Shown: one piece after another, positions 1-16,284 of the stretch
How positions within the stretch are numbered: position 1 is the first letter of the stretch
Layout of the letters: the number at the start of each line of letters is the position of its first letter
Assembly (NCBI GenBank): GCA_965204755.1
Contig: OZ242011.1
Location: 1,856,001-1,920,000, forward strand
Length of the DNA: 64,000 bases
DNA from: Candidatus Marinacidobacterium sp.
GTDB lineage: Bacteria > Acidobacteriota > Vicinamibacteria > Marinacidobacterales > Marinacidobacteraceae
Reading direction: 5' to 3'
Notes under the pieces: model-generated
What the model was told of the DNA's origin: nothing
Database searches by the model: none
Seen by the model: only the letters and a program-made list of their open reading frames with translations
Made by a program: the position numbers and the translations under genes

Positions 1-72
1 CCGTCCCCGCCGAACGGTCCACGACCGAGACGAGAATTCGAAGAAAACGCCACAAGAGGAGGCCAAAACACG

Positions 73-402
73 ATGTGGAAGACCATCACCAAGACCATCC
101 GCAATCTCCTGCTCAACGCCCTCGCCATACCGAGTATTCTGCTTGGTGTGATCTGCTTGATTACTTGGCTGACAGTGATTGTCGTAGTAACCGGCACTTG
201 GATAATTTCGGTTGTCGCATTGACCGGCGCGATCCTCATCGTTGCGTCGCCGCCCGGTTTCCTGCTCGCCATGGCCGTGGCGTACGAAAAGGGACGCAAG
301 GAACGCAAGAAGCGCAAGCGCAAGGCCGAGAAGAAGCGTCGCACCGCTCGGGCTCTGCCCATCAGTCCGGACTACGCCGCGGCGGACGGCGAACACCAAT
401 GA
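73..402 (+). CDS. small membrane protein, hypothetical
   Basis: GAGGAGG RBS upstream; long hydrophobic stretch followed by a Lys/Arg-rich tail. Confidence 0.65.
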   Translation: MWKTITKTIRNLLLNALAIPSILLGVICLITWLTVIVVVTGTWIISVVALTGAILIVASPPGFLLAMAVAYEKGRKERKKRKRKAEKKRRTARALPISPDYAAADGEHQ

Positions 403-475
403 GCGGGCAGGCCGGACATCCGCGACTGTCCCTCGACCAGCGAGTCGCAGCACGACCATCGAAACGAGGTGCATC

Positions 476-745
476 TTGGACCTGATCGGCCTCATACTGG
501 GATGGTTCTTCTTGGGTTTCCTCGACGAGAACTATCCCAGATTCTTCAAATGGGTCTTTCTTCCTCTGGCTCTCTGGGTCTCTATTGCCCTTGTTGTCAG
601 TTGTGTTGATGACTTGCTACACCACGATGCCGTAGAGAGTGTTGATTGCGGCAACCCGGATGTCCGATGTATCAACGGGCCCCACTCGGTTGACTGCAGC
701 GCCCCGGCGATCCGGTGCATCAACACTGACGGCGACCTACCGTGA
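476..745 (+). CDS. small membrane protein with duplicated SVDC-x5-RCIN motif
   Basis: GAGGT RBS then TTG at 476, in the frame of ORF 242..745; two hydrophobic segments, then SVDCGNPDVRCIN / SVDCSAPAIRCIN. Confidence 0.55.
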   Translation: MDLIGLILGWFFLGFLDENYPRFFKWVFLPLALWVSIALVVSCVDDLLHHDAVESVDCGNPDVRCINGPHSVDCSAPAIRCINTDGDLP

Positions 746-799
746 CCTCGACCACGGAGAGTCGCGTCCGAACGGAGTCTCGATGGCGGATTGGAAGAC

Positions 800-834
800 A
801 TACGACGGAATCTGTCGCCCTGTCGATCTATCGT
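800..834 (+). promoter_or_regulatory. putative WYL-regulator box + -10 (copy 1)
   Basis: ATACGAC-GGAATCT-GTCG, 11 nt, TATCGT. Confidence 0.65.
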
Positions 835-916
835 TCCCTTGCCGCCGGACGATGTGTGTCGAAATCGGCCGGTCGAGGGCCGGTCGGACGCTCCGACGGG
901 CGGTGAGGAAACGAAC

Positions 917-1063
917 ATGCGGTATCGCTCTACGAAGAACATCGTGCGACTCGCCACCGAAGTCGGGTGTGTCCGGCACGGGATGACCAACGAGGATATC
1001 TGGAGTGAAGCCGCCGGCTTTCGGCGGCCGAGCGGACGGAGAAGGGAGACGCCTTCGACATGA
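917..1063 (+). pseudogene. truncated duplicate of the 5' end of the WYL regulator gene
   Basis: MRYRSTKNIVRLATEVGCVRHGMTNEDI aligns with (L)RYGPTKNVVRLAVKLQGAPRGLTMEEI at 2330; the upstream ~115 bp is also homologous to 2213-2330; stop overlaps ATG at 1060. Confidence 0.8.
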
Positions 1064-2043
1064 GTACGCCGGATTCTCTGCCGCCGGAGAAGGCCCGGCC
1101 TTCCGCGGCCTCCGCTCCGGAAAAAGGTTTTCCGAGCGACGAGGCTCGAGCACTCGCGATGTCGCGGAGATGGTGGGTCTGCTTCGCGCTGTCCTTCGAG
1201 ATCTGGTGGGTCGGATTCGTCGCGCTCCACCCCTTCTACCCTTTCGTGGACACCGCCTTGACGCGGGCGGCGTGGGCCGCGGTTCCGGTTGCCTTGGTCG
1301 CGGCCCGTGCGGTCTTGGTGTGGGTGAGCCTTTACGAGACCATGCGTACTCTCGTGCGTGCTCTCGCTGAGAGCAAGCTGGCCGAGTCCGGTGCAGTGCA
1401 CCATTTTTGGCTTCTCATCCCGGGATTCCTCCTTGGCGGAGCGTTCTCGAAGCGCAAGATCGTGCGGCTGCGCCGCGCGGTCAAGCGAGTTCCCCGCTCA
1501 GCGCGAAAGCACCAGTTCCGTACATGGAGGGCTCCGACGCGAAACGCACTGTGGGCCTGGGGACTGATCTTCTATCCGGCTTGGTTCGTGATCGGTGCGG
1601 TGCAGGCTGTAATCGGCCGAGATCATGTGACAGGAGTCCTCGAGATATTCGGTGCGTCGGTCGGTGTGGCGGTCATGGTCGTGGCCGCGCGGACGATCGT
1701 TCTCGTGCGGCGTGCGCGGAGGAAGTTCCGCGGCTCTCTGAACGACGCATCCACCGTAGGCGTGGCGGGCCTCGTGGTCGCGGAAGTCGTCGGCAACGCG
1801 CCGAGAAGGGTCGGCCGACGGCTGACCCGCCGCTATGTGCGGTATCTGACCTCGTTCTGGCGCACGAGGCTGCTGAATTTCTTGGCCCTTCTCTTTCTCG
1901 CAGCGATCATCCTCGCTTGGTTCGACTTCACGACACTGCTGAACCACCTCTCCCGGTTGTCTCCCGGTCTCGCGGTCCTCCTCATCTGGAGGCATCGAAA
2001 GGCCCGGAAGAAGGGCGCGGGGCGCACGAGAAAAAAGGATTGA
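1060..2043 (+). CDS. polytopic membrane protein, hypothetical
   Basis: 327-aa ORF with several hydrophobic segments separated by Arg-rich loops. Confidence 0.7.
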   Translation: MSTPDSLPPEKARPSAASAPEKGFPSDEARALAMSRRWWVCFALSFEIWWVGFVALHPFYPFVDTALTRAAWAAVPVALVAARAVLVWVSLYETMRTLVRALAESKLAESGAVHHFWLLIPGFLLGGAFSKRKIVRLRRAVKRVPRSARKHQFRTWRAPTRNALWAWGLIFYPAWFVIGAVQAVIGRDHVTGVLEIFGASVGVAVMVVAARTIVLVRRARRKFRGSLNDASTVGVAGLVVAEVVGNAPRRVGRRLTRRYVRYLTSFWRTRLLNFLALLFLAAIILAWFDFTTLLNHLSRLSPGLAVLLIWRHRKARKKGAGRTRKKD

Positions 2044-2212
2044 GGGTCGCTTCCTCGCGCGCGGAGGACGGCAGCCGTCGTCCGGCTTTCGGGCGGGGGC
2101 TCTCCGCCCCTCGTACCGAGCCGACCGCCCGACAGCGCTGCCCCTCCCCGGCCGCGGTCCGTAGCGCCCCGCTCGGCGGCGCTCCGGTTCGCCCCGTCGG
2201 CCCCTCCAAAAT

Positions 2213-2247
2213 CTACGACACATTTTGTCGCATACCCCGTCTAAGGT
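2213..2247 (+). promoter_or_regulatory. putative WYL-regulator box + -10 (copy 2, autoregulatory)
   Basis: CTACGAC-ACATTTT-GTCG, 11 nt, TAAGGT, directly upstream of the WYL gene. Confidence 0.7.
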
Positions 2248-2329
2248 TCCCCCTGCCGCCGGAAGAGGGCGTCGAGGCCGGCCCGTCGGGGGTCGGTCGG
2301 GCGTTCCGACGGGCGGCGAGGAGACGCAA

Positions 2330-3319
2330 TTGCGATACGGCCCCACGAAGAATGTCGTTCGGCTCGCCGTCAAACTGCAGGGCGCGCCGCGCGGGCTGAC
2401 CATGGAAGAGATCCAGCGCGAAGTCGGCGGCTCCCGGCGGACGGCGGAGCGGATGAAGAACGCCGTCGAGGAGTGCTTCGACACCCTCCACGCGGTGGAG
2501 AGCGACGACCGGAAGACGCACTGGCGCCTGGAGTCGCGGGCGCTCCGCGGATTAATCCGGATCACCCCGGAAGAATTGGCCGAGATGTCGCCGATGACCG
2601 AAGCCCTGGAACGGGCCGGGCACACCGAGCGCGCCGCCGCCGCGCGGGCGCTCGCCGACAAACTGCGGGCGCTCCTGCCCTGCCGCCCCGAGCCCGGCGA
2701 GCCGGACGAAGACCTCGAAGCGCTGCTCCGCTCCGAGGGGCTGGCCATGCGGGCCGGCCCCCGCCCGCGGCTGGAGCCGGGCCTGCTCCCCCTCCTCCGC
2801 GAGGCGATCCTCACGCGGCGGGTCGTCGAGTTCGACTACCGGGCGCCGAACCGAAGCGAGCCGAAGACCTTCTCGGCGCACCCGCACGGCATCCTCTACG
2901 GCGCGCGGCCGCACCTCGTGGCCCGCGCCGACTGGGCGGACGACCTGCGCCTGTGGCGGCTCGACCGCATCCGCCGCGCCCGCGTCACCGACCGGCCGTT
3001 CACCCCGGCCCCGGACTTCGACCTCGAGGACTACGCCCGCCGATCGTTCGGCACCTACCGGGAGCCGCCGGTCCCGGTTGTCCTACGCTTCGCCGCCGCC
3101 GTGGCCGACGACGCGGAAGGGTTCCTCTTCCACCCCGGCCAGACCGTCGAGCGCAACCCCGACGGAACGGTCACGGTCCGCTTCGAGGCCGGCGGCCAAC
3201 AGGAAATGGCCTGGCACCTTTTCACCTGGGGCTCGAGCGTAACCATCGAAGAGCCCCGTTCCCTCCGCGACCGCCTCGCGGGCCTGTGCGCCGAACTCGC
3301 CGCGCACCACGCACCATGA
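2330..3319 (+). CDS. HTH-WYL-WCX transcriptional regulator (DriD/PafC-like)
   Basis: N-terminal wHTH (LTMEEIQREVGGSRRTAERM), WYL core (FDY..HPHGILYG..HLVA..WRLDRI), WCX tail (EMAWHLFTWG..IEEP..LR); GAGGAG RBS and TTG start. Confidence 0.9.
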   Translation: MRYGPTKNVVRLAVKLQGAPRGLTMEEIQREVGGSRRTAERMKNAVEECFDTLHAVESDDRKTHWRLESRALRGLIRITPEELAEMSPMTEALERAGHTERAAAARALADKLRALLPCRPEPGEPDEDLEALLRSEGLAMRAGPRPRLEPGLLPLLREAILTRRVVEFDYRAPNRSEPKTFSAHPHGILYGARPHLVARADWADDLRLWRLDRIRRARVTDRPFTPAPDFDLEDYARRSFGTYREPPVPVVLRFAAAVADDAEGFLFHPGQTVERNPDGTVTVRFEAGGQQEMAWHLFTWGSSVTIEEPRSLRDRLAGLCAELAAHHAP

Positions 3320-3903
3320 CTCGACCCCTCGACCCCACCACCGCCCCGCCGCCGGCGCCCGGCGCCCCGACGAAATTCGTCGCGCTCGACTTCGAGACCG
3401 CCAATATCTGGCGCGACAGCGCCTGCGCCGTCGGCGTGGTCGTCGTTGAAGACGGCCGCATCACGCACTCCGTCCACCGCCTCATCCGCCCCCCGAAGAG
3501 TTGGTTCTCGTTCACCTGGCTCCACGGGTTGGACTGGAAGAAGGTCCGCGACGCGCCGGCGTTCGACGCCGTGTGGCGCGACCTGGCGCCGCTGTTCGAC
3601 GGAGCGGACTTCGTGGCGGCGCACAACGCCTCGTTCGACCGATCGGTGCTCGCCGCCTGCTGCAGCCGCCACGGGTTGGCCACCCCGCCGCAGCCCTTCG
3701 TCTGCTCGGTGAAGGTCGCCCGCGAAGTCTGGAACTTCTACCCGACGAAACTCTCCGATGTCTGCGCCCGGCTGGACATCCCGCTGAACCACCACGAGGC
3801 CCTTTCCGACGCGAAGGCCTGCGCCCGCATCGTCATCGCGGCCACCGCCACCGGCTGGCGCCCCCGCCTCCCCGGGTCCGCGCCGCCCCCGCCGGAGGCC
3901 TGA
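3316..3903 (+). CDS. DEDDh 3'-5' exonuclease (DnaQ-like)
   Basis: ALDFETAN, AHNASFD, HHEALSDA motifs; ATGA overlap with the WYL gene. Confidence 0.9.
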   Translation: MTRPLDPTTAPPPAPGAPTKFVALDFETANIWRDSACAVGVVVVEDGRITHSVHRLIRPPKSWFSFTWLHGLDWKKVRDAPAFDAVWRDLAPLFDGADFVAAHNASFDRSVLAACCSRHGLATPPQPFVCSVKVAREVWNFYPTKLSDVCARLDIPLNHHEALSDAKACARIVIAATATGWRPRLPGSAPPPPEA

Positions 3904-4116
3904 ACCCCCCGCGCCGCCGGCGGGCCGCAAACGCGCCCACCGGCCGGCGCGTGCGGTCGTCGGCGCTCCCCACTCGCGAGAACGGCGCTCTTGCGGAAGG
4001 CGGGGCCGAGAACCGTCGCTTCCGACCCCCCACCGTCGCGCCGGTTCGCCTCCCGAGCGCTCGGGATTCATGGCCACCGGCGCTCGCCCGACTGCGAGCC
4101 GTCCCTCGCCGGCGTC

Positions 4117-4145
4117 TTGCGCCCCCTCCCGCAGTTTTCTATAGT
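4117..4145 (+). promoter_or_regulatory. sigma70-like promoter for the vsr/R-M genes
   Basis: TTGCGC-N17-TATAGT. Confidence 0.45.
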
Positions 4146-4248
4146 CGCGCTCAACGGGATTCCCGCGTCCGTCCGGGCGCGTGGGCGGCGATTCGCGCCG
4201 CCGATTCGTCTCCCCACCTTTCCATCGCAGGAGTTCACCCTCCGGTTC

Positions 4249-4740
4249 ATGACGACCTCTCCGGCGGCGGCGGCACTGCGCAGCCGCACGATGCGGGCGG
4301 TTCGGTCCAAGGACACGGCCCCGGAGATGCGCGTCCGCCGCCTGGCCCACCGCCTCGGGTACCGCTACCGCCTTCACCGGAAAGACCTGCCGGGAAAGCC
4401 CGATCTCGCATTCCCGTCCCGTCGGAAAGTCATCTTCGTCCACGGCTGCTGGTGGCATCAGCATGACTGCGCTCACGGACGCCGCCTCCCGGCTACCCGA
4501 CGGGAGTACTGGCTTCCCAAATTGAGCGGGAACCGGCGCCGCGACCGGGAGAACCGGCGGCGCCTCGAGGCCTCGGGCTGGGAAGTCCTGACCGTCTGGG
4601 AATGCGAGGTGACCGACGACTCCGCGCTGCGCGCGCGGCTTCGGAATTTCCTCGGCGAGACGCTCGCCCCACCCGGAGACCCCGCGCTCCCCCTGACCGC
4701 CGAGACCCGCGACAGTTTTCGTCCGGCCCCCGGGCGATGA
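4249..4740 (+). CDS. vsr: very short patch repair endonuclease
   Basis: RSRTMRAVRSKDTAPE, LPGKPD, FVHGCWWHQH, VWECE motifs. Confidence 0.92.
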   Translation: MTTSPAAAALRSRTMRAVRSKDTAPEMRVRRLAHRLGYRYRLHRKDLPGKPDLAFPSRRKVIFVHGCWWHQHDCAHGRRLPATRREYWLPKLSGNRRRDRENRRRLEASGWEVLTVWECEVTDDSALRARLRNFLGETLAPPGDPALPLTAETRDSFRPAPGR

Positions 4741-4839
4741 TCCCCGCATGAGATCGAGTCGACCTCCCCGCGCCGGGCGCGGCAGCGTCGCAGGCGAGTC
4801 CTCCCGCTCCGCTCCCCGATCCCCGAGCCCGGAGTTCCG

Positions 4840-5886
4840 GTGATGCCGCGGCCCTCTGCGATCAGCCTCTTCGCCGGCGCCGGCGGTCTCGACATCGGCG
4901 TCGACCGGGCGCGGATCAAGACGATCTGCGCCATCGAACTGGACCGACACTGCGCCGCGACGCTGCGCCGCAACGCCCGTCGCAAGACGGTGTGGCAGGT
5001 GGACACCCGCGCCTTGGATCCGCAACGGGTTCTCGAAGTGTTCGGCATCGAGCCCGGCGAACTCACGCTGCTCCACGGGGGGCCGCCCTGCCAACCATTC
5101 AGCCAGATCGGGCACCGACGCGGGCTCGACGACCCGCGCGGCGCCCTCGTCTTCGAGATGGCGCGATTCGCGGCCGTCCTCCGGCCTTCGGCGGTCCTGA
5201 TGGAGCAGGTTCCCACCTTTCTCCAGGCCAAGAGCGCCACGGGCGAGCCGCTCGTCGAGTCTCTGCGCGAGGCGTTCTCCCGCATCGGCTACGACCTGCA
5301 CTCGCACACCCTGGATGCCCTGCACTTCGGAGTCCCGCAGAAGCGCCGTCGCGCGTTCGTCGTGTGCGTGCCCGAAGGGCAGTCGTTCTCGTTTCCCGGC
5401 ATCGCTCCCGCGGCGGTGTCCACGGTCGGCGAAGCGATCCGGGATCTCCCGAAGCCGGCGGCCAAGGGCGTGGAGCCGGCTCTGCCCAACCACACGGACA
5501 TCACTCCCGCCCGTGATCGCCAACGCATCCGCTATGTCCCGGAGGGTCTCTGGCTCTCCAAGTCACCCGGCGTGCCCCCGGACATCATGCGCAATCTCAC
5601 GAGAAAGGACACGACGAAGTTTCGCCGCCTCCATCGTGGTCTGCCTTCCCCGACGGTTCGCTGCGGCGAACCCTTCTACCACCCGACAGAACCTCGCTAC
5701 ATCACGCCGCGCGAAGCCGCTCGACTGCAAGGCTTCCCTGACGGGCATGTTCTCGTCGGGCCGATCCGCGGACGAACGGGCCAGGTTCCCGATCTGGATC
5801 AACACCGACAGGTGGCAAACGCCGTTCCTCCGCCGCTGGCGGCGGCTGTCGCTCGAAGCATCGGAGCATCGTTGTGTCTTTCGTAG
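4840..5886 (+). CDS. DNA (cytosine-5) methyltransferase of a type II R-M system
   Basis: LFAGAGG (I), GGPPCQPFS (IV), MEQV (VI), PQKRRR (VIII), REAARLQGFP (IX), QVANAVPP (X). Confidence 0.93.
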   Translation: MMPRPSAISLFAGAGGLDIGVDRARIKTICAIELDRHCAATLRRNARRKTVWQVDTRALDPQRVLEVFGIEPGELTLLHGGPPCQPFSQIGHRRGLDDPRGALVFEMARFAAVLRPSAVLMEQVPTFLQAKSATGEPLVESLREAFSRIGYDLHSHTLDALHFGVPQKRRRAFVVCVPEGQSFSFPGIAPAAVSTVGEAIRDLPKPAAKGVEPALPNHTDITPARDRQRIRYVPEGLWLSKSPGVPPDIMRNLTRKDTTKFRRLHRGLPSPTVRCGEPFYHPTEPRYITPREAARLQGFPDGHVLVGPIRGRTGQVPDLDQHRQVANAVPPPLAAAVARSIGASLCLS

Positions 5887-6866
5887 TATCCGAACTCTTC
5901 GGTCAAGCGATCGGGGCTCGGAAGGCGGCGAAGGACGCTCGAGAGGACAGCGAGACAGAGACCTCCATTCGACAGGCGTGGTGCCCGTACATGGACGCCC
6001 GGTGTGATGGCGGCGGCAACCGGGACATGATGCGAGTCGCCGCGAACGACCCGGCGATCGGGCCCCTGTTCGACAAGGCGGTCGGCGATTCGACCGGCGG
6101 CCACATTCCGTGCGGCGTTTGCAGCGTCGAGCGCCATAGCAACGGAGAGCAGTGGGCCATCTGTCCGAGACGCCTGTTGGCCTTTGGCCCCTCCGGCGTC
6201 TCCGGGTATCACGAAGCACTGGCGCAGCGGATTCTCAAGATCGGCGGCTTCGAGGCGGGACAGCGTGTCGAAGTGTGGTCCGAGATCCACCTGAAGGAGA
6301 CGGGCCCCGATCATCGGAAGTTCGATTACCGACTGGACTATGTGATGCGAGGCGTTGAGAAGAAGTCCGCACCGCTCATCATCGAGGTCATGACCTGTTC
6401 GACTTCGGGCGGCAACAAGGCGAAAGGAACGGACATGAACATGGCCTTCCGTTCCGCCGTGCTGTTCGCTCGAGGAATCCGACCGGAACCGGCGCGATCG
6501 CCCGGCGTGAATGTGCGGCAGGTGTGGGCGCGCATGGCGTCGCAACTGATCGTCAAGTCGGAGGCCGCCCTCCATTGGGGAGGCCGAGCGGTATGGGTCA
6601 TACAGGATGTGTTGGCCCAGTACATCCAAAGCCAGACGGCACTTCCTCTCGAACGCCTCCGCTCCGACGACTGGATCCCCGGCGAAGTCAATCTGATCGT
6701 CTGCAGCCTCGATGGAGGAATGAAGTTGTACTCGGGCCCGATCCGCTCGTCCAAGTCGGCTCGTCCATGTTGGCTGGAGATTCTGGGCGCCCCCCATATT
6801 CCGGCGCTGGAATCGTTGGCGCGAAAACTGGACGAGAGCGCGCCTATCGGGCAATTCGCGATCTAG
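5874..6866 (+). CDS. NotI-like type II restriction endonuclease
   Basis: four-Cys pattern CPY..RC..GVCSV..ICPRR plus D..IEVM catalytic region; overlaps the methylase stop. Confidence 0.7.
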   Translation: MSFVVSELFGQAIGARKAAKDAREDSETETSIRQAWCPYMDARCDGGGNRDMMRVAANDPAIGPLFDKAVGDSTGGHIPCGVCSVERHSNGEQWAICPRRLLAFGPSGVSGYHEALAQRILKIGGFEAGQRVEVWSEIHLKETGPDHRKFDYRLDYVMRGVEKKSAPLIIEVMTCSTSGGNKAKGTDMNMAFRSAVLFARGIRPEPARSPGVNVRQVWARMASQLIVKSEAALHWGGRAVWVIQDVLAQYIQSQTALPLERLRSDDWIPGEVNLIVCSLDGGMKLYSGPIRSSKSARPCWLEILGAPHIPALESLARKLDESAPIGQFAI

Positions 6867-6893
6867 GCCGACGGTTCCCACGGCCGGCCCAAG

Positions 6894-7007
6894 TTGCGAC
6901 CATGAGATTGCGCAGTGGCGAAAGTGTTGCCCAAGATATTGCAAATGCGACATCACGGTTGTTGCGAAAATGATGCCAATACGATTGCGAACGCGCTGCT
7001 CCCGCTC
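6894..7007 (+). repeat. degenerate ~23-bp tandem repeat upstream of AAA ATPase gene
   Basis: T(T/G)GC(G/A)A units at 6894, 6916, 6939, 6962, 6985. Confidence 0.55.
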
Positions 7008-7045
7008 TACGCTTCGCCCTCGGCGCCGTCCGGCCGCTCACTGCA

Positions 7046-8308
7046 TTGCTCCAGAACACCGCTTACCGCCCCCGCATCGCCGACCGGGAACTGGCGCAGC
7101 GCCTTCGCGCCGCCGGAGCGGTCCTGATCGAAGGTCCGCGCGGCTGCGGGAAGACGGAGATCGCGAGGTGCGCCGCCGCGAGCGAAGTCCTGCTGGACAC
7201 CGACCGGAACGCGCGCGAAGCGCTGGCGGTCGACCCGAGCGTCGTGCTCGCCGGCGACACGCCCCGCCTCTTCGACGAGTGGCAGTCCACCCCGGAGGTT
7301 TGGAACCACCTGCGACAAGCCGTGGACGACCGCCGCGAACGGGGCCAGTTCATCCTGACCGCCTCCGCCATCCCTCCGGACGACCGGACGCGCCACACCG
7401 GCGCGGGACGCGTCGGCCGCTTCCGTCTGCGCCCGATGTCGCTCGCCGAACTCGGCCGTTCGACGGGCGGAGTCTCCCTCCGCGAGCTGCTCGACGGGGA
7501 TCGCCCGTCCGCCGGAAAGGCGGAACTATCGGCAGCGGAACTCGCCGAGATCCTCTGCGTCGGCGGCTGGCCCGGACACCTCGACTCGCCGCCGAAAGCG
7601 GCCGCGCGCGCCAACCGTGACTACCTCGAAGACACCTGCCGAAAGGACCTGGAGCGGGCGGACGGCGTCCGCCGCGACCCGCGCCGCGTGAGCCGCTTCC
7701 TCAAGTCGCTCGCCCGCCACACCGCGACCTGCGCTTCGCTTGCGACCATCGCCCGCGATGTGGGCGGTTCGGAGGAAACCGTCGCCGCGCCCACCGCCCG
7801 CGCCTACCTCGCGGCCCTCGAACGAATCATGGTGGTGGAAGACCAGCCGCCCTGGTCGCCGCGGCTCCGTTCCCGCTCCCGCCTCCGCGCCGCGCCGAAG
7901 CGCCACTTCGCGGACCCGTCCCTGGCCGTGGCCGCCGTGGCCGCCGGCCCCGCCCACCTGCTCCGGGACTTCCGGTGGTTCGGCTTCCTCTTCGAGTCGC
8001 TGGTCGTCCGCGACCTCCGGGTGTACGCCCAGGCCACCGGCGGCCTCGTCCACCACTACCGCGACAACACCGGCCTCGAAGTGGACGCCGTCGTGGACGC
8101 CGGCCCCGGCCGCTGGGGAGCGTTCGAGGTGAAGATGGCCGCGGCCCGCGCCGACGAAGCCGCCGCGAACCTCCTCCGCTTCGCCGAACGGGTGGACACC
8201 GACCCCATCGGGAAACCGAGCGTCCTCGGCGTGATCGTCGCCAACGGCTACGCCTACCGCCGCCCCGACGGCGTCGCCGTCATCCCGATCACCGCACTCG
8301 GCCCGTAG
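7046..8308 (+). CDS. AAA+ ATPase with DUF4143 / PD-(D/E)XK-like C-terminus
   Basis: GPRGCGKT, FDEWQ, LRPMSLAE, KRHFADP, GFLFE, EVDAVV..FEVK. Confidence 0.9.
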   Translation: MLQNTAYRPRIADRELAQRLRAAGAVLIEGPRGCGKTEIARCAAASEVLLDTDRNAREALAVDPSVVLAGDTPRLFDEWQSTPEVWNHLRQAVDDRRERGQFILTASAIPPDDRTRHTGAGRVGRFRLRPMSLAELGRSTGGVSLRELLDGDRPSAGKAELSAAELAEILCVGGWPGHLDSPPKAAARANRDYLEDTCRKDLERADGVRRDPRRVSRFLKSLARHTATCASLATIARDVGGSEETVAAPTARAYLAALERIMVVEDQPPWSPRLRSRSRLRAAPKRHFADPSLAVAAVAAGPAHLLRDFRWFGFLFESLVVRDLRVYAQATGGLVHHYRDNTGLEVDAVVDAGPGRWGAFEVKMAAARADEAAANLLRFAERVDTDPIGKPSVLGVIVANGYAYRRPDGVAVIPITALGP

Positions 8309-8422
8309 CCGGGAAACCCGACCGCCCGCGTCCCCGGGCCGGTCGCCCCCGCCACCGGCGCAACGGATCTCGCTCCGCCGCGGCGCCGCCGGGGCGCGAG
8401 CCGCGCTCACGCCGGTGCGAAC

Positions 8423-8456
8423 TGCGACCGGAACTGACGCACGGACTCGCAACACT
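8423..8456 (+). promoter_or_regulatory. putative WYL-regulator box + weak -10 (copy 3)
   Basis: TGCGAC-CGGAACT-GACG, 11 nt, AACACT. Confidence 0.5.
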
Positions 8457-8585
8457 GGCGCAGTCCCGCCTTCGCTGCGGTCGGCGACCGGGCGGCAGCA
8501 GCGCCCGGCGCCGGCAGCGATCCGTGGCGCCGAGGCAGCCCGCGCCGCTCTGCCCGCCGAAGTCCGCCAACCATCAGGAGAACCG

Positions 8586-9671
8586 ATGACGCGAACACGA
8601 TCCTGTCTTCTTTCCGCACTCGCGCTCGCCCTCGCGCCGAGTCTCACCGCCGCGCAACCGAGAATCGAACGCGTAAACCTCAACGCCCGTCCGCAGTCCG
8701 ATTGCGCCGAATGGGGGGCCGCCGGCTTCCTCGAGGAGCAGCCGGTCGAGCGCATCGTCGCCTGCATCGCCGCCGGCTCCGACCCGAATGAGACTTTCGA
8801 CAGCGGCCGCACGGTTCTTCGCCATTCCGTCTCGATCGCGACAGAGAAGCGTCCGGAGTTGATCGATGTCGTAGAAGCATTGATCGCCGCCGGCGCCGAT
8901 GTCCACCACCGGGACCCGACCGCGAACGGGTCCGAGCCACTTGTCGCCGTGGCGGTGTCGGCAGCACTCGACTCGCGACACCGGGCGATCGCCGAGCGGG
9001 TCGTCGACGCGCTCCTCGAAGCCGGGGCCGACGCTGACGCTTCGGTGGAAGACAACGACTCCAGCGCCGACGGGATCACTCCCCTGATGATGGCGGCATT
9101 CAAGGACGCGCACCGCCTCGTCGAGGCTCTGATCCGCGCCGGCGCCGATCCCGAGGCCACCTTCAGCGGATTCACGCCACTCCATGCCGCCCTCGCCTCT
9201 CGCCAGAGGCCGCATGCGGTGGTCGAAGCGTTGCTCGATGCCGGCGCGGACACCGGTTTCCGATCGCCGGACGGACAACTCCCCATACATCGCGCCGCCA
9301 GACGGGCCGACGGCGGCGAGTTGATCTCCCTGCTCGCCGCTGCCGGCGCCGATGTCAACGCCCGGGCCACCGAAATGCGCGAGACGGCGCTCCATATCGC
9401 GGCCGGGCACAACTCGAATCGCGAAGTGATAGATGCGCTCCTGGCCGCCGGGGCGAATACGGAAGTACGGAGCAACGCCGGCCAGACTCCGCTGCACTGG
9501 TCGGTGATCTTCGCCCGGAGCACGACCGGCTTGGAGGCGCTGCTCGCCGCCGGCGCGGATCCGAATGTCGTCGATGTGCTGGGTCTTCTGCCCATCGAGT
9601 ATGCCGAGGACAACAAGTTGATTCGCGGAACGGGGGCCTATGTCAACCTGATTCGAGCGCGCTTGCGGTGA
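8586..9671 (+). CDS. secreted ankyrin-repeat protein
   Basis: signal peptide LLSALALALAPSLTA; repeated G.TPLH..A / LLAAGAD.N; AGGAG RBS. Confidence 0.9.
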   Translation: MTRTRSCLLSALALALAPSLTAAQPRIERVNLNARPQSDCAEWGAAGFLEEQPVERIVACIAAGSDPNETFDSGRTVLRHSVSIATEKRPELIDVVEALIAAGADVHHRDPTANGSEPLVAVAVSAALDSRHRAIAERVVDALLEAGADADASVEDNDSSADGITPLMMAAFKDAHRLVEALIRAGADPEATFSGFTPLHAALASRQRPHAVVEALLDAGADTGFRSPDGQLPIHRAARRADGGELISLLAAAGADVNARATEMRETALHIAAGHNSNREVIDALLAAGANTEVRSNAGQTPLHWSVIFARSTTGLEALLAAGADPNVVDVLGLLPIEYAEDNKLIRGTGAYVNLIRARLR

Positions 9672-9687
9672 CGCCGAGAAAGTAGCG

Positions 9688-10266
9688 ATGGACTCCGAAG
9701 CCGGCCGCGCGCGCTCCACGAACGCGCTCGCCACCAACCCGGTCCCGCCCGGCGCGGAACGCCCGCGCTCGTCGGCGCCGGCCGCCGAAACGGAAACGCC
9801 CGGGACGGAAACGGAGGAAAACGAAAGGGCCGAATCGGAGGACCGGCTCGTGAGGGAAGCCGTCACCGGGGGCATGGTGGTCGTGTTCCTCATCGTCGGC
9901 GGACTGGGGGCCTACTGGTTCTGGAGCGATCCGTCTTCGCCCAACCTGATCTGGACGGCCATATGGGAGGTGCTTTGGCCTTGGGGTCTGCTGGCGGCCC
10001 TCGCGGGCGGTCTCCTGCAGGGGACGCGCTGTGCTCTCCGTATCCGTCGGGAGTCCGAAGACGGCCCCGTAGAAACCGGGGAGGCGTTCGCCCTGGCCGC
10101 CTTCGCCATGTGGGGCGTCGTGCGCGGCTTCCTCAAGGAAACGAAGGAAGACGGCCAATCTCTCGCCAAGGTCCTGGTGGTCCTCGCCGCCATCGTGTTG
10201 CTGCTCCTCGTCTTCGCGCCCTCGGCGCTCGAAGACATCAAACGCTGGCTCGAAAGCCATCTCTGA
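9688..10266 (+). CDS. membrane protein, hypothetical
   Basis: about four hydrophobic segments; follows the ankyrin gene by 16 bp. Confidence 0.65.
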   Translation: MDSEAGRARSTNALATNPVPPGAERPRSSAPAAETETPGTETEENERAESEDRLVREAVTGGMVVVFLIVGGLGAYWFWSDPSSPNLIWTAIWEVLWPWGLLAALAGGLLQGTRCALRIRRESEDGPVETGEAFALAAFAMWGVVRGFLKETKEDGQSLAKVLVVLAAIVLLLLVFAPSALEDIKRWLESHL

Positions 10267-10420
10267 AACATCCCGCCCCGGACCGAATGACCCGGCCTCC
10301 ACGCCTCCCCGACTTCGACTTCGGCGGCCACCCTGGGAACCCGCGCGGCGCGCTGCCGGTCCGCCACCCGCGGCGAACGAACGCCGCCCACCCACCTCGC
10401 TTCGGCGAAGGAGAGATTCG

Positions 10421-11158
10421 ATGCTCGATTCCATAAAGGCCGACATAGAGTCCGAGAAGTCCAACCGCGCCGGGCTGCTGTCCGCGCTGGGACTCCTGCT
10501 CGTCGCCGGGCTCGTGATCTACGGGTGGCAACAGCGCGAGGAGAACAACCTCGCCCGAATCACCCGGGAGAACGAGGAGTGGGAACGGCGCGTCCGCGCC
10601 GAAGAGACTCGGCAGATCCAAGCGCGCGCGAATGCCTGGAGAGGTGTCCGGGCGGCCAATGCCCGGTGGAACGAGTTGTTCCCGTGGATGGAACGGACGA
10701 CCGAACTCCGCCAGCGAGTCCTGGCCGGGGCGGCGGGCGTGGATTGGCTGCTCAGCGACAGCAACCCGCTCGATCCGTTCGGCCTCGCTCTCGGCGCGGG
10801 CGCCATCGAGATGACCAGCCGCGTGTTCGCCCAGGCGCAGGCGCAGATCCAGTTGAAGTGGCCCGAAGTCGTCGAGGTCCTGGTCGAGATGGACGAGGCC
10901 GCGGGAGCCATGTTGCGGGCCGATGCCGCGTTACCCGGTGATGAAGCAGCCGTGGCCGCCTTCGAACGCGCCAAGGAGGTGGCCTCCCGATGGGCGGATG
11001 ACGCCAACTTGATGCAGCAGGTAGCGGCCCAGGACTTCTTCAGCGCCGGCGCGTCGGCCGCCCGTCTCAACGAGACCACTGCCGAACTCATGGCGGCGCT
11101 CGGAGAGTTGATGCCCACCCCGACGCCGTCGAACACCGGCCCCCTCACTCAGCCATGA
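10421..11158 (+). CDS. membrane-anchored helical/coiled-coil protein, hypothetical
   Basis: AAGGAG RBS; one N-terminal TM followed by E/R/A-rich helices. Confidence 0.65.
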   Translation: MLDSIKADIESEKSNRAGLLSALGLLLVAGLVIYGWQQREENNLARITRENEEWERRVRAEETRQIQARANAWRGVRAANARWNELFPWMERTTELRQRVLAGAAGVDWLLSDSNPLDPFGLALGAGAIEMTSRVFAQAQAQIQLKWPEVVEVLVEMDEAAGAMLRADAALPGDEAAVAAFERAKEVASRWADDANLMQQVAAQDFFSAGASAARLNETTAELMAALGELMPTPTPSNTGPLTQP

Positions 11159-11511
11159 CCGCCCTCCCACCCGGTCGGCGAAACGGCGCCGCCGCCTCGA
11201 CGCTCCTCTACCCGGCGACGGCGATGGCGCTCGGCGCCGCCGCCTGCATGGACGCCAGCGGCGGCGACGATCCGCTCCGGATACTCATCGGGCTCGGAGG
11301 CCCCCTCGCCACCTTGGGACTCGTGTTCCAACGCAACGCGACGATGGTGGGGATCCTCCTGGCGCTGTTCATCTGGCCGCTCGGCCTCCTCCATGCGCTG
11401 ACGAAGAGGGACCGGAGGGAAGGGGAAGACCGGGGCATCGCGAGCCGGAAGTCCGGCCGTCCCGCCGCCGCGAACCGGAAACCGCCCGCAACGACCCGGG
11501 CAACGACCTGA
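11155..11511 (+). CDS. small membrane protein (paralog of 11693..11995)
   Basis: ATGA coupling to the previous gene; LGAAAC..LIGLGG..FIWPLGLLHALTK. Confidence 0.7.
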   Translation: MTALPPGRRNGAAASTLLYPATAMALGAAACMDASGGDDPLRILIGLGGPLATLGLVFQRNATMVGILLALFIWPLGLLHALTKRDRREGEDRGIASRKSGRPAAANRKPPATTRATT

Positions 11512-11595
11512 CCCTCCATCCCCGAGCCGAAGCGCCGACCGATACCGGACGGACACCTCGCGGATCGGTTCAGCGGAGCGATCCGTCGCCCCTTC

Positions 11596-11629
11596 TGCGA
11601 CCGGATTCGGCGCAGGTCCGCCCTACCGT
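11596..11629 (+). promoter_or_regulatory. putative WYL-regulator box + -10 (copy 4)
   Basis: TGCGAC-CGGATTC-GGCG, 11 nt, TACCGT. Confidence 0.6.
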
Positions 11630-11692
11630 CGCGGTTCCCGAAGGCGGGACGATTCGTCCCGACCCGACGACTCGACAGAAAGGAAATCCGCC

Positions 11693-11995
11693 ATGACCAC
11701 CGCGCCCACCCGAAGGCGCCGCCGCCGGCCCGCTTCGTTCTTCGTCGGCGCCGCGCTCGCGCTGTCTCTCGGCGCCGCCTGCGCGGGATCCGGCAACCCC
11801 GGCACGGACCTCCTCTTCATGCTCATCGGCGTCGGCGGCGCCATCGGAACCATCATGCTCGCGTCGCGCCGCGGCGTGATGACCACGGGAGTCGTCGTGC
11901 TGACCTTCGTCTTCTGGCCGGCCGCCCTCATCCATGTCCTGACGAAAGAGCGCGATCCAGAGAAGTTGGACATCGGGCCTTCGAGCAGCGACTGA
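11693..11995 (+). CDS. small membrane protein (paralog of 11155..11511)
   Basis: AAAGGA RBS; LGAAC..LIGVGG..FVFWPAALIHVLTK. Confidence 0.7.
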   Translation: MTTAPTRRRRRRPASFFVGAALALSLGAACAGSGNPGTDLLFMLIGVGGAIGTIMLASRRGVMTTGVVVLTFVFWPAALIHVLTKERDPEKLDIGPSSSD

Positions 11996-12084
11996 CCCTC
12001 CGCCTCGCGTGCGAAGCCGGGCGGATACGACGATAGCGCGGGGAGGCCGCCGCCCGAATCATCGAATCGATCCGTCGCTCCAAA

Positions 12085-12118
12085 TGCGACCGGATCTGGC
12101 GCAACGGCGCCCTAGTCT
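12085..12118 (+). promoter_or_regulatory. putative WYL-regulator box + -10 (copy 5)
   Basis: TGCGAC-CGGATCT-GGCG, 11 nt, TAGTCT; shares upstream GATCCGTCGC with copy 4. Confidence 0.6.
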
Positions 12119-12184
12119 CCCTCGCCTACCGGATACCTGACCGGACCGAAATACGGATCTGGACATAGAAGAAAGGATACGAAC

Positions 12185-13135
12185 ATGGATCGTCGCAACT
12201 TCCTGAAACTCGGCGGCGCCGCCGGCGCGGTCGCCGCCGCGCCCGACGCCGCGGCCCGAACGACCGACCCCCCAAGCCTCGGATTCCACGCCGACCGCCG
12301 CGCCCTGCTCGCGGAACTGGCGCTCGTCGAGTTGCTGCTCGCGCAGGAGCGCCGGCCCTCCCCCGACGAACCGCCCCACCCGGAAGTCACGCTCTCCCCC
12401 GGCGCGTTCGGCTGCCGGATCTTCGCCGCCGCCGCGGACACCCGCTTCCACACCACGGTCGAGGCCGAGTGCGCCGGCGCCGGCGCCGTGACCGTCCCGC
12501 TGCCCGACCTCCGGCGCCGGCTCTCCGCCGGCAGCGGCGAAACCGTCACCGTTCGCGCGTTCGAGTCGGCGGACCGGATCGAAGCCGAATGCGGCGGCCC
12601 CGCCACCCGCATCCCCGCCCGACCCGCCGACTTCCCCGAACCCGACGCCCCGCCGCCCTCGGCGTTCACCGTCCCGGCCGACCCCCTGGCCCAATACCTC
12701 CGCTTCGTCTCGCGCGAGCGCTACGGCGTCCACCGCCCCGGCCCGCCCCGAATCCCCGACCCGGAAGCGCGGGAGCACTTCGCCCGCGAAGCGAGCCGCT
12801 CCCGCCCGACGGTGTATCCGTTCCCGGCCAACGCCGCGGTCGTCCCGCTGTGGGGAAACCCAGCCGGAAGGCGCGCCGCGCGGGGCGTCCGCAAGGACGA
12901 AATCGTCACGCTCCGCCTCGAAACCCTGATCCAGGCGTTGGCGCTCGAAGGAACCCTCGAGCGCCGCGCCCGCCTCCGCCAGGACGGGATCCGCATCTTC
13001 GTCGAGTGCGGAAAGCGCCTGCTCGCGTCCTCCACCTGCGCGCCGGGCGCCTCGGCCTCGACCACCATCGAACACCTGGCCTTCATCCGCTCCGGCCCCG
13101 ACCGGCTCGTCATCGGCGCGGAGTCCCCCGCCTGA
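12185..13135 (+). CDS. protein with twin-arginine motif and degenerate beta-clamp (DnaN domain I)-like region
   Basis: MDRRNFLKLGG; AADTRFHTTVEAECAGAGAVTVPLPDL..RIPARPADFPE..FTVPADPL resembles the DnaN N-terminal pattern; AAAGGA RBS. Confidence 0.55.
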   Translation: MDRRNFLKLGGAAGAVAAAPDAAARTTDPPSLGFHADRRALLAELALVELLLAQERRPSPDEPPHPEVTLSPGAFGCRIFAAAADTRFHTTVEAECAGAGAVTVPLPDLRRRLSAGSGETVTVRAFESADRIEAECGGPATRIPARPADFPEPDAPPPSAFTVPADPLAQYLRFVSRERYGVHRPGPPRIPDPEAREHFAREASRSRPTVYPFPANAAVVPLWGNPAGRRAARGVRKDEIVTLRLETLIQALALEGTLERRARLRQDGIRIFVECGKRLLASSTCAPGASASTTIEHLAFIRSGPDRLVIGAESPA

Positions 13136-13161
13136 CCGTCGCCCCTCACGCCTCCCCGGAC

Positions 13162-14625
13162 ATGCCCGACGAAACCGCCCCGCTCCCCCACGACCGCGCC
13201 GCCGAACTCGCGGTCCTCGGAGCGGTCCTGCTCGACCGCCGCCAGTTGGACGCCGTCCGCCAGGTCCTCGCCCCGGCCGACTTCCACGACGCCCGCCACC
13301 GCTGGATCTTCGACGCCGTCTGCTCGCTGGACACGGAGAACGAACCCATAGATGTCGTCACCCTCCGCTCCCGCCTGGCTCGGGACGGCCGGCTCGAAAC
13401 CGTCGGCGGCCCCGCCTTCCTCTCCGAACTCTTCGACGGCCTGGCGCTCTCCACGAACGCCGGCGACTACGCCCGCATCGTGCGCGGCCATTCCCTCTCC
13501 CGCCGCCTCCACCGCTACGGCAGCCGCATCGCCGCCGACGCCCCCCGCCGCGATCCCGCCGCCCTCCTCGAAGACGCCGAACGGACGCTCTTCTCCATCG
13601 CCGAAGGCCTCCAGACCAACGCCCCCGTCCCCGTCGGCGAAACCACCGACGCCCTCGCGGAGGAAGCGCAGGAATACCGGAAAGCGCTCCCCGGCATCGA
13701 AACCGGCCTGCCCGAACTCGACCGCCTCATGGGCGGACTGCGCCCGTCCGACCTCGTCCTGCTCGGCGCCCGCCCGGGAGAGGGCAAGACCAGCCTCGCC
13801 CTCAATGTCACGCTCGACGCCGCGCTCCGCGGCGCCCGCGTGCTCGTGTTCAGTCTGGAGATGTCGCTGCGGCAGATCGGCATCCGCCTGCTCTTCTCCC
13901 ACGCCCGGGTGGACGCCCGCCCGCTCTCCGAGCGCGGCGCCTATTCCGCGGACGACCGCCGCAAGATCCGAAACGCGGCCGACTCGCTCCGTCCCCTCCC
14001 GATCCGCGTGGACGACTCCCCGGTGACCCCGGTCGAACTCCGCTCGAAGGCCCGCCAACTCCGCCGCGACCCGGGCCTCGACCTGATCGTGGTGGACTAC
14101 CTCCAACTCATGCGCGCGAGCGACGACGGCCGCCGGCGCTTCGAGAACCGCAACCTGGAGATCGCCGACATCAGCCGCTCGCTGAAACTCCTGGCGAAGG
14201 AACTCGATGTCCCGGTCCTCGCGCTGTCCCAGTTGAGCCGCGCCCCCGAACAACGCGACGCCGCCGCCCCCCGCCTCTCCGACCTCCGCGAGTCCGGCTC
14301 CCTCGAACAGGACGCCGACATCGTCCTGTTCCTCCACCGCGAACGCCGCCCCGCCCCCCGCGCCCCCGAAAACGGCGCGTCCGCCGACCCCGGCCCGCCC
14401 ACCCGCCGCGTAACCGTCGCCAAGAACCGCAACGGCCCCACCGGCTCCGTCCAACTCGCCTGGCTCGACCGCTTCACCCGCTTCGCCTCCATCGCCGAAC
14501 TCGACGCCGACGCGGTGCCCGACGGTAAGGACGAATGGGAAGCCGAAGAGCCTCGGGAGCCCGCCGCCCCGGCCCAGTCCCGGACGGAAGCACCCCACGA
14601 TTCGGCCGCGGATGTGGGCTTCTGA
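13162..14625 (+). CDS. dnaB: replicative DNA helicase DnaB (probably an accessory copy)
   Basis: AELAVLGAVL, GARPGEGKT, FSLEMS, IVVDYLQLM, LSQLSR, DLRESGSLEQDAD, KNRNGPTG. Confidence 0.93.
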   Translation: MPDETAPLPHDRAAELAVLGAVLLDRRQLDAVRQVLAPADFHDARHRWIFDAVCSLDTENEPIDVVTLRSRLARDGRLETVGGPAFLSELFDGLALSTNAGDYARIVRGHSLSRRLHRYGSRIAADAPRRDPAALLEDAERTLFSIAEGLQTNAPVPVGETTDALAEEAQEYRKALPGIETGLPELDRLMGGLRPSDLVLLGARPGEGKTSLALNVTLDAALRGARVLVFSLEMSLRQIGIRLLFSHARVDARPLSERGAYSADDRRKIRNAADSLRPLPIRVDDSPVTPVELRSKARQLRRDPGLDLIVVDYLQLMRASDDGRRRFENRNLEIADISRSLKLLAKELDVPVLALSQLSRAPEQRDAAAPRLSDLRESGSLEQDADIVLFLHRERRPAPRAPENGASADPGPPTRRVTVAKNRNGPTGSVQLAWLDRFTRFASIAELDADAVPDGKDEWEAEEPREPAAPAQSRTEAPHDSAADVGF

Positions 14626-14824
14626 TGCGCCGTCGCTCACGGGCCGGTTTTAGCGCGACTACCACGGATTCCCTGAACCTCGATCCAAGTCTCGCCCGCA
14701 GCACTTCGCTCGCCCATGTGTCGCTTGAGGGCGAGCCCCAGCATTCTCCCATGGCCCACAGGAGCCTCTCGAACGGAGAAAGCGGGAACGGACTCACACG
14801 ATCCCGCGCCCCAACTCGAATCCA

Positions 14825-15148
14825 ATGAAACATCTATCCAACTACCTCGAAATGGTTGACGACTTGGTCAGTCAAGCCAAAGAGTTGTGCGTTACTCGAT
14901 GGCTGCTGCTCCTCTTCGTCCTCATTAACCTCGACCTACCCTTCAGCACACTCCCTTTCAGCAAACCCATCGTGGATCTTGAGTGGACGGACCTCCCGAT
15001 AGTTCTCGGTGGGTGGATCGCGTGGGGAGCAGTAGTCCTTTGGAGGAGAAAGGTCGCAGAACGGAAAGTTCGCGCGAAGCACTGGGTCGTAATTGCCGAC
15101 TTGGATAGACGGCTCGACCAGCGCCTCAACGGTTCCGATTCGAAATGA
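14825..15148 (+). CDS. small two-TM membrane protein, hypothetical
   Basis: lower-GC ORF with two hydrophobic segments; ATGA overlap with the next gene. Confidence 0.55.
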   Translation: MKHLSNYLEMVDDLVSQAKELCVTRWLLLLFVLINLDLPFSTLPFSKPIVDLEWTDLPIVLGGWIAWGAVVLWRRKVAERKVRAKHWVVIADLDRRLDQRLNGSDSK

Positions 15149-16113: not shown

Positions 16114-16283
16114 CCAAGACTACGAGATCCACCCGGCCCTCTGGCGATCCAGAGGGCGAAGTCGCCGCCCGGTGTCTTTCGGACGCGCCAGCCTCAGCAC
16201 GACTGGGCCTGACCACTCGAGACGAGGACGGGAACACTTGTCTCCATCTGGTGCCGGTCGGACCTGCTCGCCTTGTGGAGTAG
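16110..16283 (+). pseudogene. truncated ankyrin gene interrupted by an IS remnant
   Basis: ATGA-coupled ORF containing RDEDGNTCLHL, ending at the IS481 fragment. Confidence 0.45.
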
Positions 16284-16284
16284 G

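Follow-up and report, generated by a model that had tools for sequence, protein, structure and literature searches.

Which protein reads the boxes that recur at the promoters of a variable genomic island, and to what effect? This question is raised by a window of 64,000 nucleotides (nt) from Candidatus Marinacidobacterium sp. (G000:C1:1856001-1920000 of the single-contig genome G000; 3.98 Mb, 71.7% G+C), in which five quasi-palindromic boxes with a CGAC-N7-GNCG core accompany a gene for a helix-turn-helix (HTH) protein with a WYL domain. As judged from the comparisons described below, these boxes are likely to be operator-promoter sites of the type used by DriD of Caulobacter and to be read by the WYL protein of the island, which would most likely serve as a ligand-dependent activator.

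The first-pass annotation of the window had reported five cores at 803, 2216, 8425, 11598, and 12087, all of them intergenic on the sense side of a gene, followed exactly 11 nt later by a -10-like hexamer and lacking a convincing -35. This description was confirmed: a pattern scan returned the same five positions on the plus strand, the gene calls placed each box between genes, upstream of a plus-strand gene and co-oriented with it, the 11-nt gap was exact at all five cores (hexamers in Table 1), and a sigma-70 scan of positions 1-17500 yielded two promoter-like sites (179-206 and 6355-6382), neither of them at a box. The five boxes have the sequence T(A/G)CGAC-N7-GNCGC(A/C) in common, and the complete site takes the form of a 19- to 21-bp pseudo-palindrome, T(A/G)CGAC-N7-G(T/G/A)CGCA, whose core ends 11 nt before the -10 hexamer TAnnnT. 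Counting 17 nt upstream from the -10 leads, as we read the sequence, into the box, i.e., the box covers the place that a -35 would occupy. The box at 2216, a CGAC-N7-GTCG pseudo-palindrome, is located in the regulator's own promoter, 83 nt ahead of the start codon of the WYL gene. Two further sites were found just upstream of the window, at -7471 and -1277, so that there are at least seven. Boxes 4 and 5 are also preceded by a third half-site, GTCGC (11585-11589 and 12074-12078), 12 bp upstream of the respective box, giving three half-sites with a 12-bp period within a common GATCCGTCGC stretch.

The bare pattern turned out to be uninformative. CGAC-N7-GNCG was not enriched in the window (68 matches against 66.6 expected), and within positions 800-12118 we counted about 12 distinct positions, 7 of which fall inside coding sequence. 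The signal is carried by the flanks and the -10. The 19-mer TRCGAC-N7-GNCGCM, which was defined post hoc, matched exactly the five sites in the window, compared to 0.57 expected, and 16 positions in the 3.98-Mb genome, 5 of which fall within the 11.3 kb considered here. The composite CGAC-N7-GNCG-N11-TAnnnT matched 10 times genome-wide, and all 10 matches were intergenic in a genome of which 10.5% is intergenic by a crude mask; with the hexamer at 13 other offsets (range, 5-18), 0 to 6 matches each were obtained genome-wide. Intergenic enrichment, which had been proposed as a check on the motif, was thus seen for the composite. Four of the five boxes were among the 10 composite matches (the exception being 8425, with AACACT), as was the site at -7471. 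The others stand ahead of an AddB-like nuclease gene, a Dcm fragment with a DUF4928 gene, rpsO, and hflK, and one has no downstream gene. When the published DriD consensus was scanned over ~4 million positions, the box at 2216 was the single best match (12/14); at 11/14 there were 28 matches, 4 of them intergenic, and two of these 4 were the box at 803 and the site at -7471. A box at recA was not found in G000.

Two further occurrences of the motif deserve mention. At 3368-3382, just behind the regulator gene, the exonuclease gene contains, 52 nt from its start, a perfect CGAC-N7-GTCG palindrome whose spacer is AT-rich; six such palindromes having 5 A/T spacer positions occur in the genome, always in coding sequence, and this one may therefore be due to chance. 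The composite match at the Dcm fragment (G000:C1:1777044-1777075, 79 kb upstream of the window) consists of an AT-spacer box, 11 nt, and TACCTT, has a score of 12.6 with the matrix introduced below, and precedes a 63-aa Dcm fragment and the DUF4928 gene.

The connection between box and regulator extends well beyond this genome. We assembled 80 foreign loci (0.99 Mb) with relatives 48-57% identical to the regulator, which by record title are metagenome-assembled genomes of Gammaproteobacteria, Alphaproteobacteria, Acidobacteriota, Nitrospirales, Spirochaetia, Binatia, and others. The foreign WYL gene follows a tandem AAA+ ATPase gene, and an ATPase homologue is present in 68 of the 80 loci. The combination of box, 11 nt, and TAnnnT occurred 33 times in these loci, compared to 1 to 8 times at offsets 7-15, and by our own count the ATPase promoter, ~2.2 kb ahead of the WYL gene, is where 25 of the 33 sites are located. 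The 33 sites have the consensus T(A/G)CGACCGnATnTGACGCA-N9-TAGnnT. Directly upstream of the foreign WYL genes, any core within 250 nt was found in only 4 of the 80 loci, in no case with a -10, and this location was discarded.

A matrix scan of the genome and its relatives had been suggested as a further check on the boxes. A matrix built from the 33 foreign sites alone ranked the five boxes among the six best matches of G000 (scores in bits in Table 1); the sixth was the site at -7471, in third place with 24.3 bits, and the site at -1277 followed as the seventh with 13.4 bits. Altogether, 14 matches exceeded 8 bits and all were intergenic, while the reversed-genome control gave one match above 15, with a maximum of 19.9. 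In the reciprocal scan with a box-only matrix from the six G000 sites, 42 of the 80 foreign loci had a box at the ATPase promoter, 1900-2600 nt ahead of the WYL gene; among the 90 box matches in these loci, TAnnnT was present at +11 in 66, at other offsets in three, and absent in 22. The AAA+ ATPase of G000 is 39% identical to the foreign ones over ~500 residues and is encoded 3.6 kb upstream of the regulator, with inserted genes in between. The clade shares the box, the spacing, and the AAA+ ATPase partner, and its sites can therefore be predicted from sequence in uncultured organisms.

The regulator is a member of the DriD family. It matched the Pfam models WYL (4.1e-15) and WCX (1.6e-14), and phmmer aligned its residues 2-323 to the full-length DriD chains 9pfq and 8tp8 with E-values of 8e-52 to 1e-51, compared to 6.8e-9 for PafC. 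In this alignment its recognition helix, RRTAERM, is identical to that of DriD, including Arg37 and Arg41, which are base contacts of DriD according to PMC10853764, and R36-R41 was invariant in 26 aligned family members. The suggestion that the local WYL protein is of the DriD type is therefore well founded, given homology over the full length at an E-value of about 1e-51 and the identical recognition helix. More than 1000 relatives were found at an E-value of 1e-30, and the PADLOC matches of the regulator were to generic WYL models.

Sites of this kind are concentrated where the island-type regulator occurs. Among the 28 family genomes searched (G000 included), an island-type DriD was present in G000, in G001 of the same genus (51% identity), and on a second contig of G013 (50%), whereas the remaining 24 family genomes with a match had only a core WYL paralogue, 32-38% identical. 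Matches to the strict pattern numbered one in G000, 10 in G001, and one in the remaining 26 family genomes combined, with one match in all backwards-read controls; the loose composite matched 10 times in G000, 15 times in G001, and 0 to 6 times in the other family genomes. With a box-only matrix applied to the G000, G001, and G013 regions, TAnnnT was found at +11 in 19 of 24 matches, at +10 in 1, and nowhere else in the range 5-18. The predicted sites form a dense promoter cluster, with 7 in G000 and 14 in G001 lying within ~20 kb of a hot-spot island.

The island of G001 is syntenic with that of G000. The GATase gene to the left of the latter is present in 27 of the 28 family genomes, and in 5 of the 26 compared loci the 1.5-kb flank after the GATase gene contains a homologue of the G000 gene 28872-30827, which in three cases starts ~90 nt after the GATase gene. 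The G000 genome thus has an insertion of ~36 kb at this variable position. The first box of G001 follows the same GATase gene by 11 nt, and all 14 matrix matches are on the plus strand within ~20 kb, most of them ahead of genes for small membrane or lipoprotein-like proteins and ahead of orf192 and orf245 homologues. Three more G001 boxes precede its intact regulator, and one box of G013 precedes its homologue. The clamp-like and DEDDh homologues of G001 have no match of their own above 9 bits. Two side observations concern these regions: the 455-aa gene 24064-25431 of G000 is a partial duplicate of the 651-aa gene 28872-30827, which marks the right island edge in relatives, and may trace island growth; and upstream of the intact regulator of G001 (L131, G001:C1:3972001-3992000; 11691-12150, minus strand) there are three tandem box-promoter units ~200-240 bp apart with similar flanks, the third with a gap of 10 nt.

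These data suggest the following mechanism. An HTH-WYL-WCX protein of the homodimer type would bind the boxes with the recognition helix that it has in common with DriD, and with its WYL domain loaded with a nucleic-acid ligand it would recruit RNA polymerase to seven promoters that lack a -35 and would otherwise be weak. We favor the activator role because the promoters, in which the box takes the -35 position, TAnnnT follows at a constant 11 nt, and a -35 is missing, have the architecture of those served by the activators DriD and PafBC. The ligand would probably be single-stranded DNA arising from damage or phage replication; by analogy with DriD, and given the three of seven pocket residues described below, its identity as single-stranded DNA has a chance little better than even. 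The predicted output comprises the regulator itself together with the translationally coupled DEDDh exonuclease, the polytopic membrane protein MemB and its paralogue MemA (whose gene lies behind the -7471 box), each behind a truncated driD stub, the run of ankyrin and membrane genes, small lipoprotein-like membrane proteins, and a beta-clamp paralogue with a twin-arginine (Tat) signal together with a second DnaB. The first-pass annotation had predicted a regulon of five promoters; their assignment as DriD-type sites stands, but the set was too small by at least two sites, and three of the sites are copies of one promoter.

A number of points weigh against this interpretation. Going by their sequences, one promoter was copied to give the sites at 803, 2216, and -7471, which hence are not independent occurrences. 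The -10 is poor at two sites (AACACT at 8425 and CAGGAT at -1277), and no box was recognizable at the island's AAA+ ATPase gene in G000. The intergenic assignments depend on a crude gene mask from a codon-usage caller (2841 genes, 89.5% coding), which replaced an earlier mask based on third-codon-position G+C that was dropped as too strict (73% coding). In our own reading of the alignment, 3 of the 7 residues of the DriD pocket for single-stranded DNA (Y168, S172, R178, Y192, K202, R204, W206) are kept (Y170, R207, W209), the others being N, F, H, and D. Of the residues mutated in the DriD binding assay with the alpha C-terminal domain (alpha-CTD) (R121, R122, P125, E128), only E128 is kept (E130), the others being G, E, and E, in a comparison of sequences in which the contact surface may differ. 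As few pocket and alpha-CTD residues are kept, ligand and activation contacts may differ from those of DriD. Binding by the island protein rather than by a paralogue, activation, the ligand, and the roles of the targets are all inferred from sequence. Finally, the core WYL paralogue apparently uses similar boxes with the same spacing and could bind some of the sites, especially the AT-spacer boxes at 803 and 2216.

The last point leads to the alternative that survives best, namely, that the boxes are real but read mainly by the core paralogue, or by both proteins, which we regard as unlikely. The core paralogue (G000:C1:2091374-2092438) is 35% identical to the island protein, retains both base-contacting arginines in its helix HRTAQRY, and was found in all but one of 27 family genomes. 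Genomes having this paralogue alone contain one or two conserved sites of the form CGAC(A/G)GGATTTGTCGC + 11 nt + TA(T/G)AGT, to which the AT-spacer boxes at 803, 2216, and -7471 are closer than to the CGACCG...TGACGCA type, and G000 itself has a site of the core-paralogue type before the AddB-like nuclease gene. However, in other phyla the CGACCGnATnTGACGCA type goes together with the island-type clade (33 sites in 80 loci), the two genomes of the genus with the island-type protein are the only ones to have dense clusters of boxes, and it is the helix of the island protein that equals that of DriD, whose published consensus selects box 2216 as the best of the genome. Together with the AddB-like site, the core paralogue probably represents a separate core DNA-repair regulon. 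The site in question (G000:C1:809311-809342) consists of a box, 11 nt, and TATAGT before the AddB-like (PDDEXK_1) nuclease gene, and similar conserved sites are present in most sister-genus genomes; the core paralogue gene is located behind a putative dGTPase-like gene, named by eye.

A second alternative, that the WYL protein represses its promoters in the manner of BrxR/CapW, occupying them until a signal releases them, we judge to be distinctly improbable. In its favor, the abstract of PMC13622015 describes repressors with a WYL domain as common in defence systems, the island does hold defence-type genes (Vsr-Dcm-restriction enzyme, PDC-S01-like, and PDC-S48-like), and only one out of four residues in the alpha-CTD assay set is conserved. 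Such a repressor would, however, act on promoters that are weak without an activator, as a -35-like hexamer is missing at every box; moreover, the architecture is the same as that of the activators DriD and PafBC, and the nearest solved relatives are the DriD chains (E-value of 1e-51, versus 6.8e-9 for PafC). Activation thus remains our preferred reading.

The copied promoters are informative in their own right. The paralogy among 803, 2216, and -7471 spans ~300 nt (mean column identity, 80%), a segment that comprises the promoter, the leader, and the 5' part of the gene. At 803 and -7471 this segment ends in a 48-aa driD stub (Table 1), so that each stub lies behind a copy of the regulator promoter and is joined to one of the paralogous genes memA and memB, and in G001 one box likewise precedes a truncated driD copy. 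MemA and MemB are only 32% identical, in contrast to their promoter-leader-stub segments, which are ~80% identical at the nucleotide level. The locus thereby shows one way in which a regulon of this kind expands, namely, by duplication of a promoter together with a gene stub. A GC-rich hairpin was predicted in the driD-type leaders, but the covariation term of 0.06 with 4 sequences gave no support for an RNA structure. That the boxes are functionless remnants of duplicated DNA, such as a promoter cassette or a small repeat, is hardly credible despite this paralogy and the 10 nt upstream of the box that 11598 and 12087 also have in common, since at the sites outside the paralogous trio the flanks are unrelated and only the box and the -10 are alike, the same elements recur with the same spacing in other phyla, all sites are intergenic and co-oriented with genes, and MemA and MemB have diverged to 32% while the promoter-leader stayed ~80% identical.

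Table 1. Boxes, regulator, and genes of the island. Positions are those of the window unless a contig is named; matrix scores (bits) refer to the matrix from foreign sites.
Feature	Position	Strand	Remarks
Box 1	801..834	+	19-mer 801-819, core 803-817, 11-nt gap, TATCGT 829-834; matrix score 23.8; paralogous copy of the driD promoter
Box 2	2214..2247	+	19-mer 2214-2232, core 2216-2230, 11-nt gap, TAAGGT 2242-2247; matrix score 23.1; regulator's own promoter
Box 3	8423..8456	+	19-mer 8423-8441, core 8425-8439, 11-nt gap, AACACT 8451-8456; matrix score 26.9
Box 4	11596..11629	+	19-mer 11596-11614, core 11598-11612, 11-nt gap, TACCGT 11624-11629; matrix score 19.0
Box 5	12085..12118	+	19-mer 12085-12103, core 12087-12101, 11-nt gap, TAGTCT 12113-12118; matrix score 29.4, best of the genome
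DriD-family HTH-WYL-WCX regulator, 329 aa	2330..3319	+	Pfam, phmmer
driD 5'-end remnant, 48 aa	917..1063	+	Frameshift inside the recognition helix; ATGA overlap with the next gene
Second 48-aa driD stub	G000:C1:1848643-1848789		7.4 kb upstream of the window; same frameshift; ATGA overlap with a membrane gene
memB, polytopic membrane protein	1060..2043	+	No Pfam match; 32% identical to MemA
DEDDh (RNase_T) 3'-5' exonuclease	3316..3903	+	Start overlaps the driD stop by 4 nt; PDC-S48 and DEDDh models
Vsr-Dcm-putative restriction enzyme cassette	3907..7070	+	Between the exonuclease and the DUF4143 ATPase; without own box
AAA_14/DUF4143 ATPase	7046..8308	+	PADLOC candidate PDC-S01; without own box
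Gene run behind box 3	8586..11511	+	Ankyrin 8586-9671, orf192 9688-10266, orf245 10421-11158, 118-aa membrane protein 11155-11511
Small membrane protein, lipoprotein-like, 100 aa	11693..11995	+	Paralogous to the 118-aa protein; in G001, boxes precede similar genes
Two-domain beta-clamp (DnaN) paralogue, 316 aa	12185..13135	+	Twin-arginine signal; without domain III
Second DnaB helicase, full-length	13162..14625	+	Start 26 nt after the clamp-like gene

Most of the genes behind the boxes (Table 1) resist annotation. Pfam, PHROGs, and PADLOC returned nothing for memA, memB, orf332, orf192, orf245, and the small membrane proteins, and Protein Atlas gave nothing usable for memB. The memA/memB family is lineage-specific, with 5 representatives in 1.84 billion proteins. 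The ankyrin protein 8586-9671 has a signal-like segment at its N terminus, and ankyrin genes abound in the island. Besides the exonuclease with its PDC-S48 match, defence-type genes are represented by the Vsr-Dcm-restriction enzyme cassette and the PDC-S01-like ATPase gene. Part of the natural population lacks the cassette, as indicated by a contig joint from 3907 to 7070 in run X3, and the depth over 3921-6860 was much lower in runs X3 and X10. The stretch is present in sponge and marine metagenome runs; RNA runs containing positions 700-10600 of the window were not among the listed runs. A terminator scan found 6 terminators compared to 10.2 expected, so that operon ends are not informed by it.

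The pair behind box 5 had been described as clamp-like protein and DnaB, and this description proved right, as shown by the DnaN alignment, the matches of the structure model, and the DnaB homology. The clamp-like protein aligns to DnaN over domains I and II only and is 37% identical to the DnaN proteins of the family over domain I (E-value of 4e-20), which are 374 aa long and carry DNA_pol3_beta domains. Its structure model is of middling confidence (mean pLDDT of 60.6; about 90 in domain I) and matched only sliding clamps, the best with an E-value of 2.9e-10. PHROGs assigned it to the processivity factors (1e-4), and Protein Atlas gave only weak leads (0.76-0.78) to viral DNA_pol3_beta clusters. 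The twin-arginine signal was above the Pfam cut-off (7.2e-6) and is kept in the G001 homologue. The start codon is preceded by a good ribosome-binding site (AAAGGA), and an exported clamp-like protein would be odd. The DnaB of the island is 73% identical to the housekeeping copy (G000:C1:1370056-1371528), which lies in an rpsF-rplI-dnaB-radA context.

The exonuclease, DnaB, and DnaN paralogues point to DNA transactions as the field of the putative regulon, and the many small membrane proteins recall division inhibitors of the DidA type or abortive-infection effectors. It is possible, though on balance doubtful, that the island represents a new output of a WYL sensor: in place of repair genes, damage or phages would trigger a lineage-specific envelope battery of two polytopic proteins, small lipoprotein-like proteins, a signal-bearing ankyrin protein, the Tat-signal clamp, and an extra DnaB. 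Such a battery might serve as an abortive-infection or growth-arrest program with decoy replisome parts, or as a damage-triggered host-interaction program in a sponge-associated bacterium, and the regulon would be growing by copying of the regulator promoter plus stub. The WYL regulons known so far that lead from single-stranded DNA to transcription (DriD, DdaA, and PafBC) are made up of genes for repair, cell division, or defence in a small number of model groups, whereas the boxes described here stand before genes that no library names; the locus offers targets for finding out what this clade controls. In the literature searched we found no AAA+-DriD operon or island regulon of this kind, although supplementary lists of DriD and DdaA homologues and motifs may already include members of the clade. 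Nor did we find in print a phylum-spanning clade with an AAA+ partner, 7 to 14 promoters in one hot-spot island, promoter-plus-stub duplications, or a Tat-signal clamp paralogue.

The regulator, the box, and the promoter logic are already known from DriD, DdaA, and PafBC and do not constitute a new mechanism. PafBC, according to PMC8635444, is a heterodimer encoded by two adjacent genes; it requires RNA polymerase for binding to its -26 element, which is non-palindromic, and its promoters lack a -35. The geometry that the first-pass annotation had given for these promoters agrees with that source, since tGTCgg(N10)tA(N3)T corresponds to GTCG + 11 nt + TAnnnT in the island. Apart from the missing -35, this spacing from half-site to -10 is the only feature in common: the island has a single WYL gene followed by an exonuclease gene, its sites are palindromic, and the match to PafC reached just 6.8e-9. 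BrxR and CapW are repressors encoded directly upstream of one defence operon with an operator over a complete sigma-70 promoter, whereas the island has seven dispersed sites without a -35.

DdaA of the Moraxellaceae is a WYL activator that stands next to DriD in the authors' tree and has the motif CGWCA-N5-TGWCG, according to PMC12392091. This motif has the same CGNC-N7-GNCG frame as the boxes of the island, in a comparison based on the description of DdaA rather than its sequence. In the same text, DdaA is reported to control DNA-damage genes together with anti-phage systems (restriction-modification, CRISPR-Cas, and Zorya) and to replace SOS as a global regulator, whereas a LexA gene is present in G000 and the predicted regulon is local to the island.

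The closest solved relative is DriD. Its consensus is given as ATACGAC(X)7GTCGTAT and its 20-bp didA site ends in GGCGCA in PMC9186387, PMC10853764, and PMC13004042; the CGAC-N7-GTCG box that the first-pass annotation had given for Caulobacter DriD agrees with the consensus, the island boxes match both, and the end of the didA site resembles boxes 11598 and 12087. According to PMC13004042, the distance to the -10 is the same for every DriD site and a -35 is missing, and in the three cryo-electron microscopy promoter fragments listed in its methods we counted 11 nt from the 15-bp core to CAAGGT, CAATCT, or CAAGCC. Unlike DriD, to which it is about one-third identical, the island protein comes from a different phylum, has an AAA+ ATPase partner, and keeps only 3 of 7 residues of the pocket for single-stranded DNA. 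As to the phylum, the two named entries among at least 120 near hits of a housekeeping gene belong to Gemmatimonadota and Longimicrobiales. Its predicted sites are not scattered at core repair genes but lie in one ~20-kb stretch of a variable island, and its putative targets are mostly lineage-specific membrane proteins. Nevertheless, putative targets of the island protein are of kinds that also occur among those of DriD: a small membrane protein is represented by DidA in Caulobacter and by several small membrane proteins behind boxes in the island, and replication and repair by dnaG and recJ for DriD and by DnaB, DnaN paralogues, and an exonuclease here. Like DriD, the island regulator has a box in its own promoter, and its sites have a mostly AT-rich spacer, cover the -35 position, keep a fixed distance to the -10, and lack a -35.

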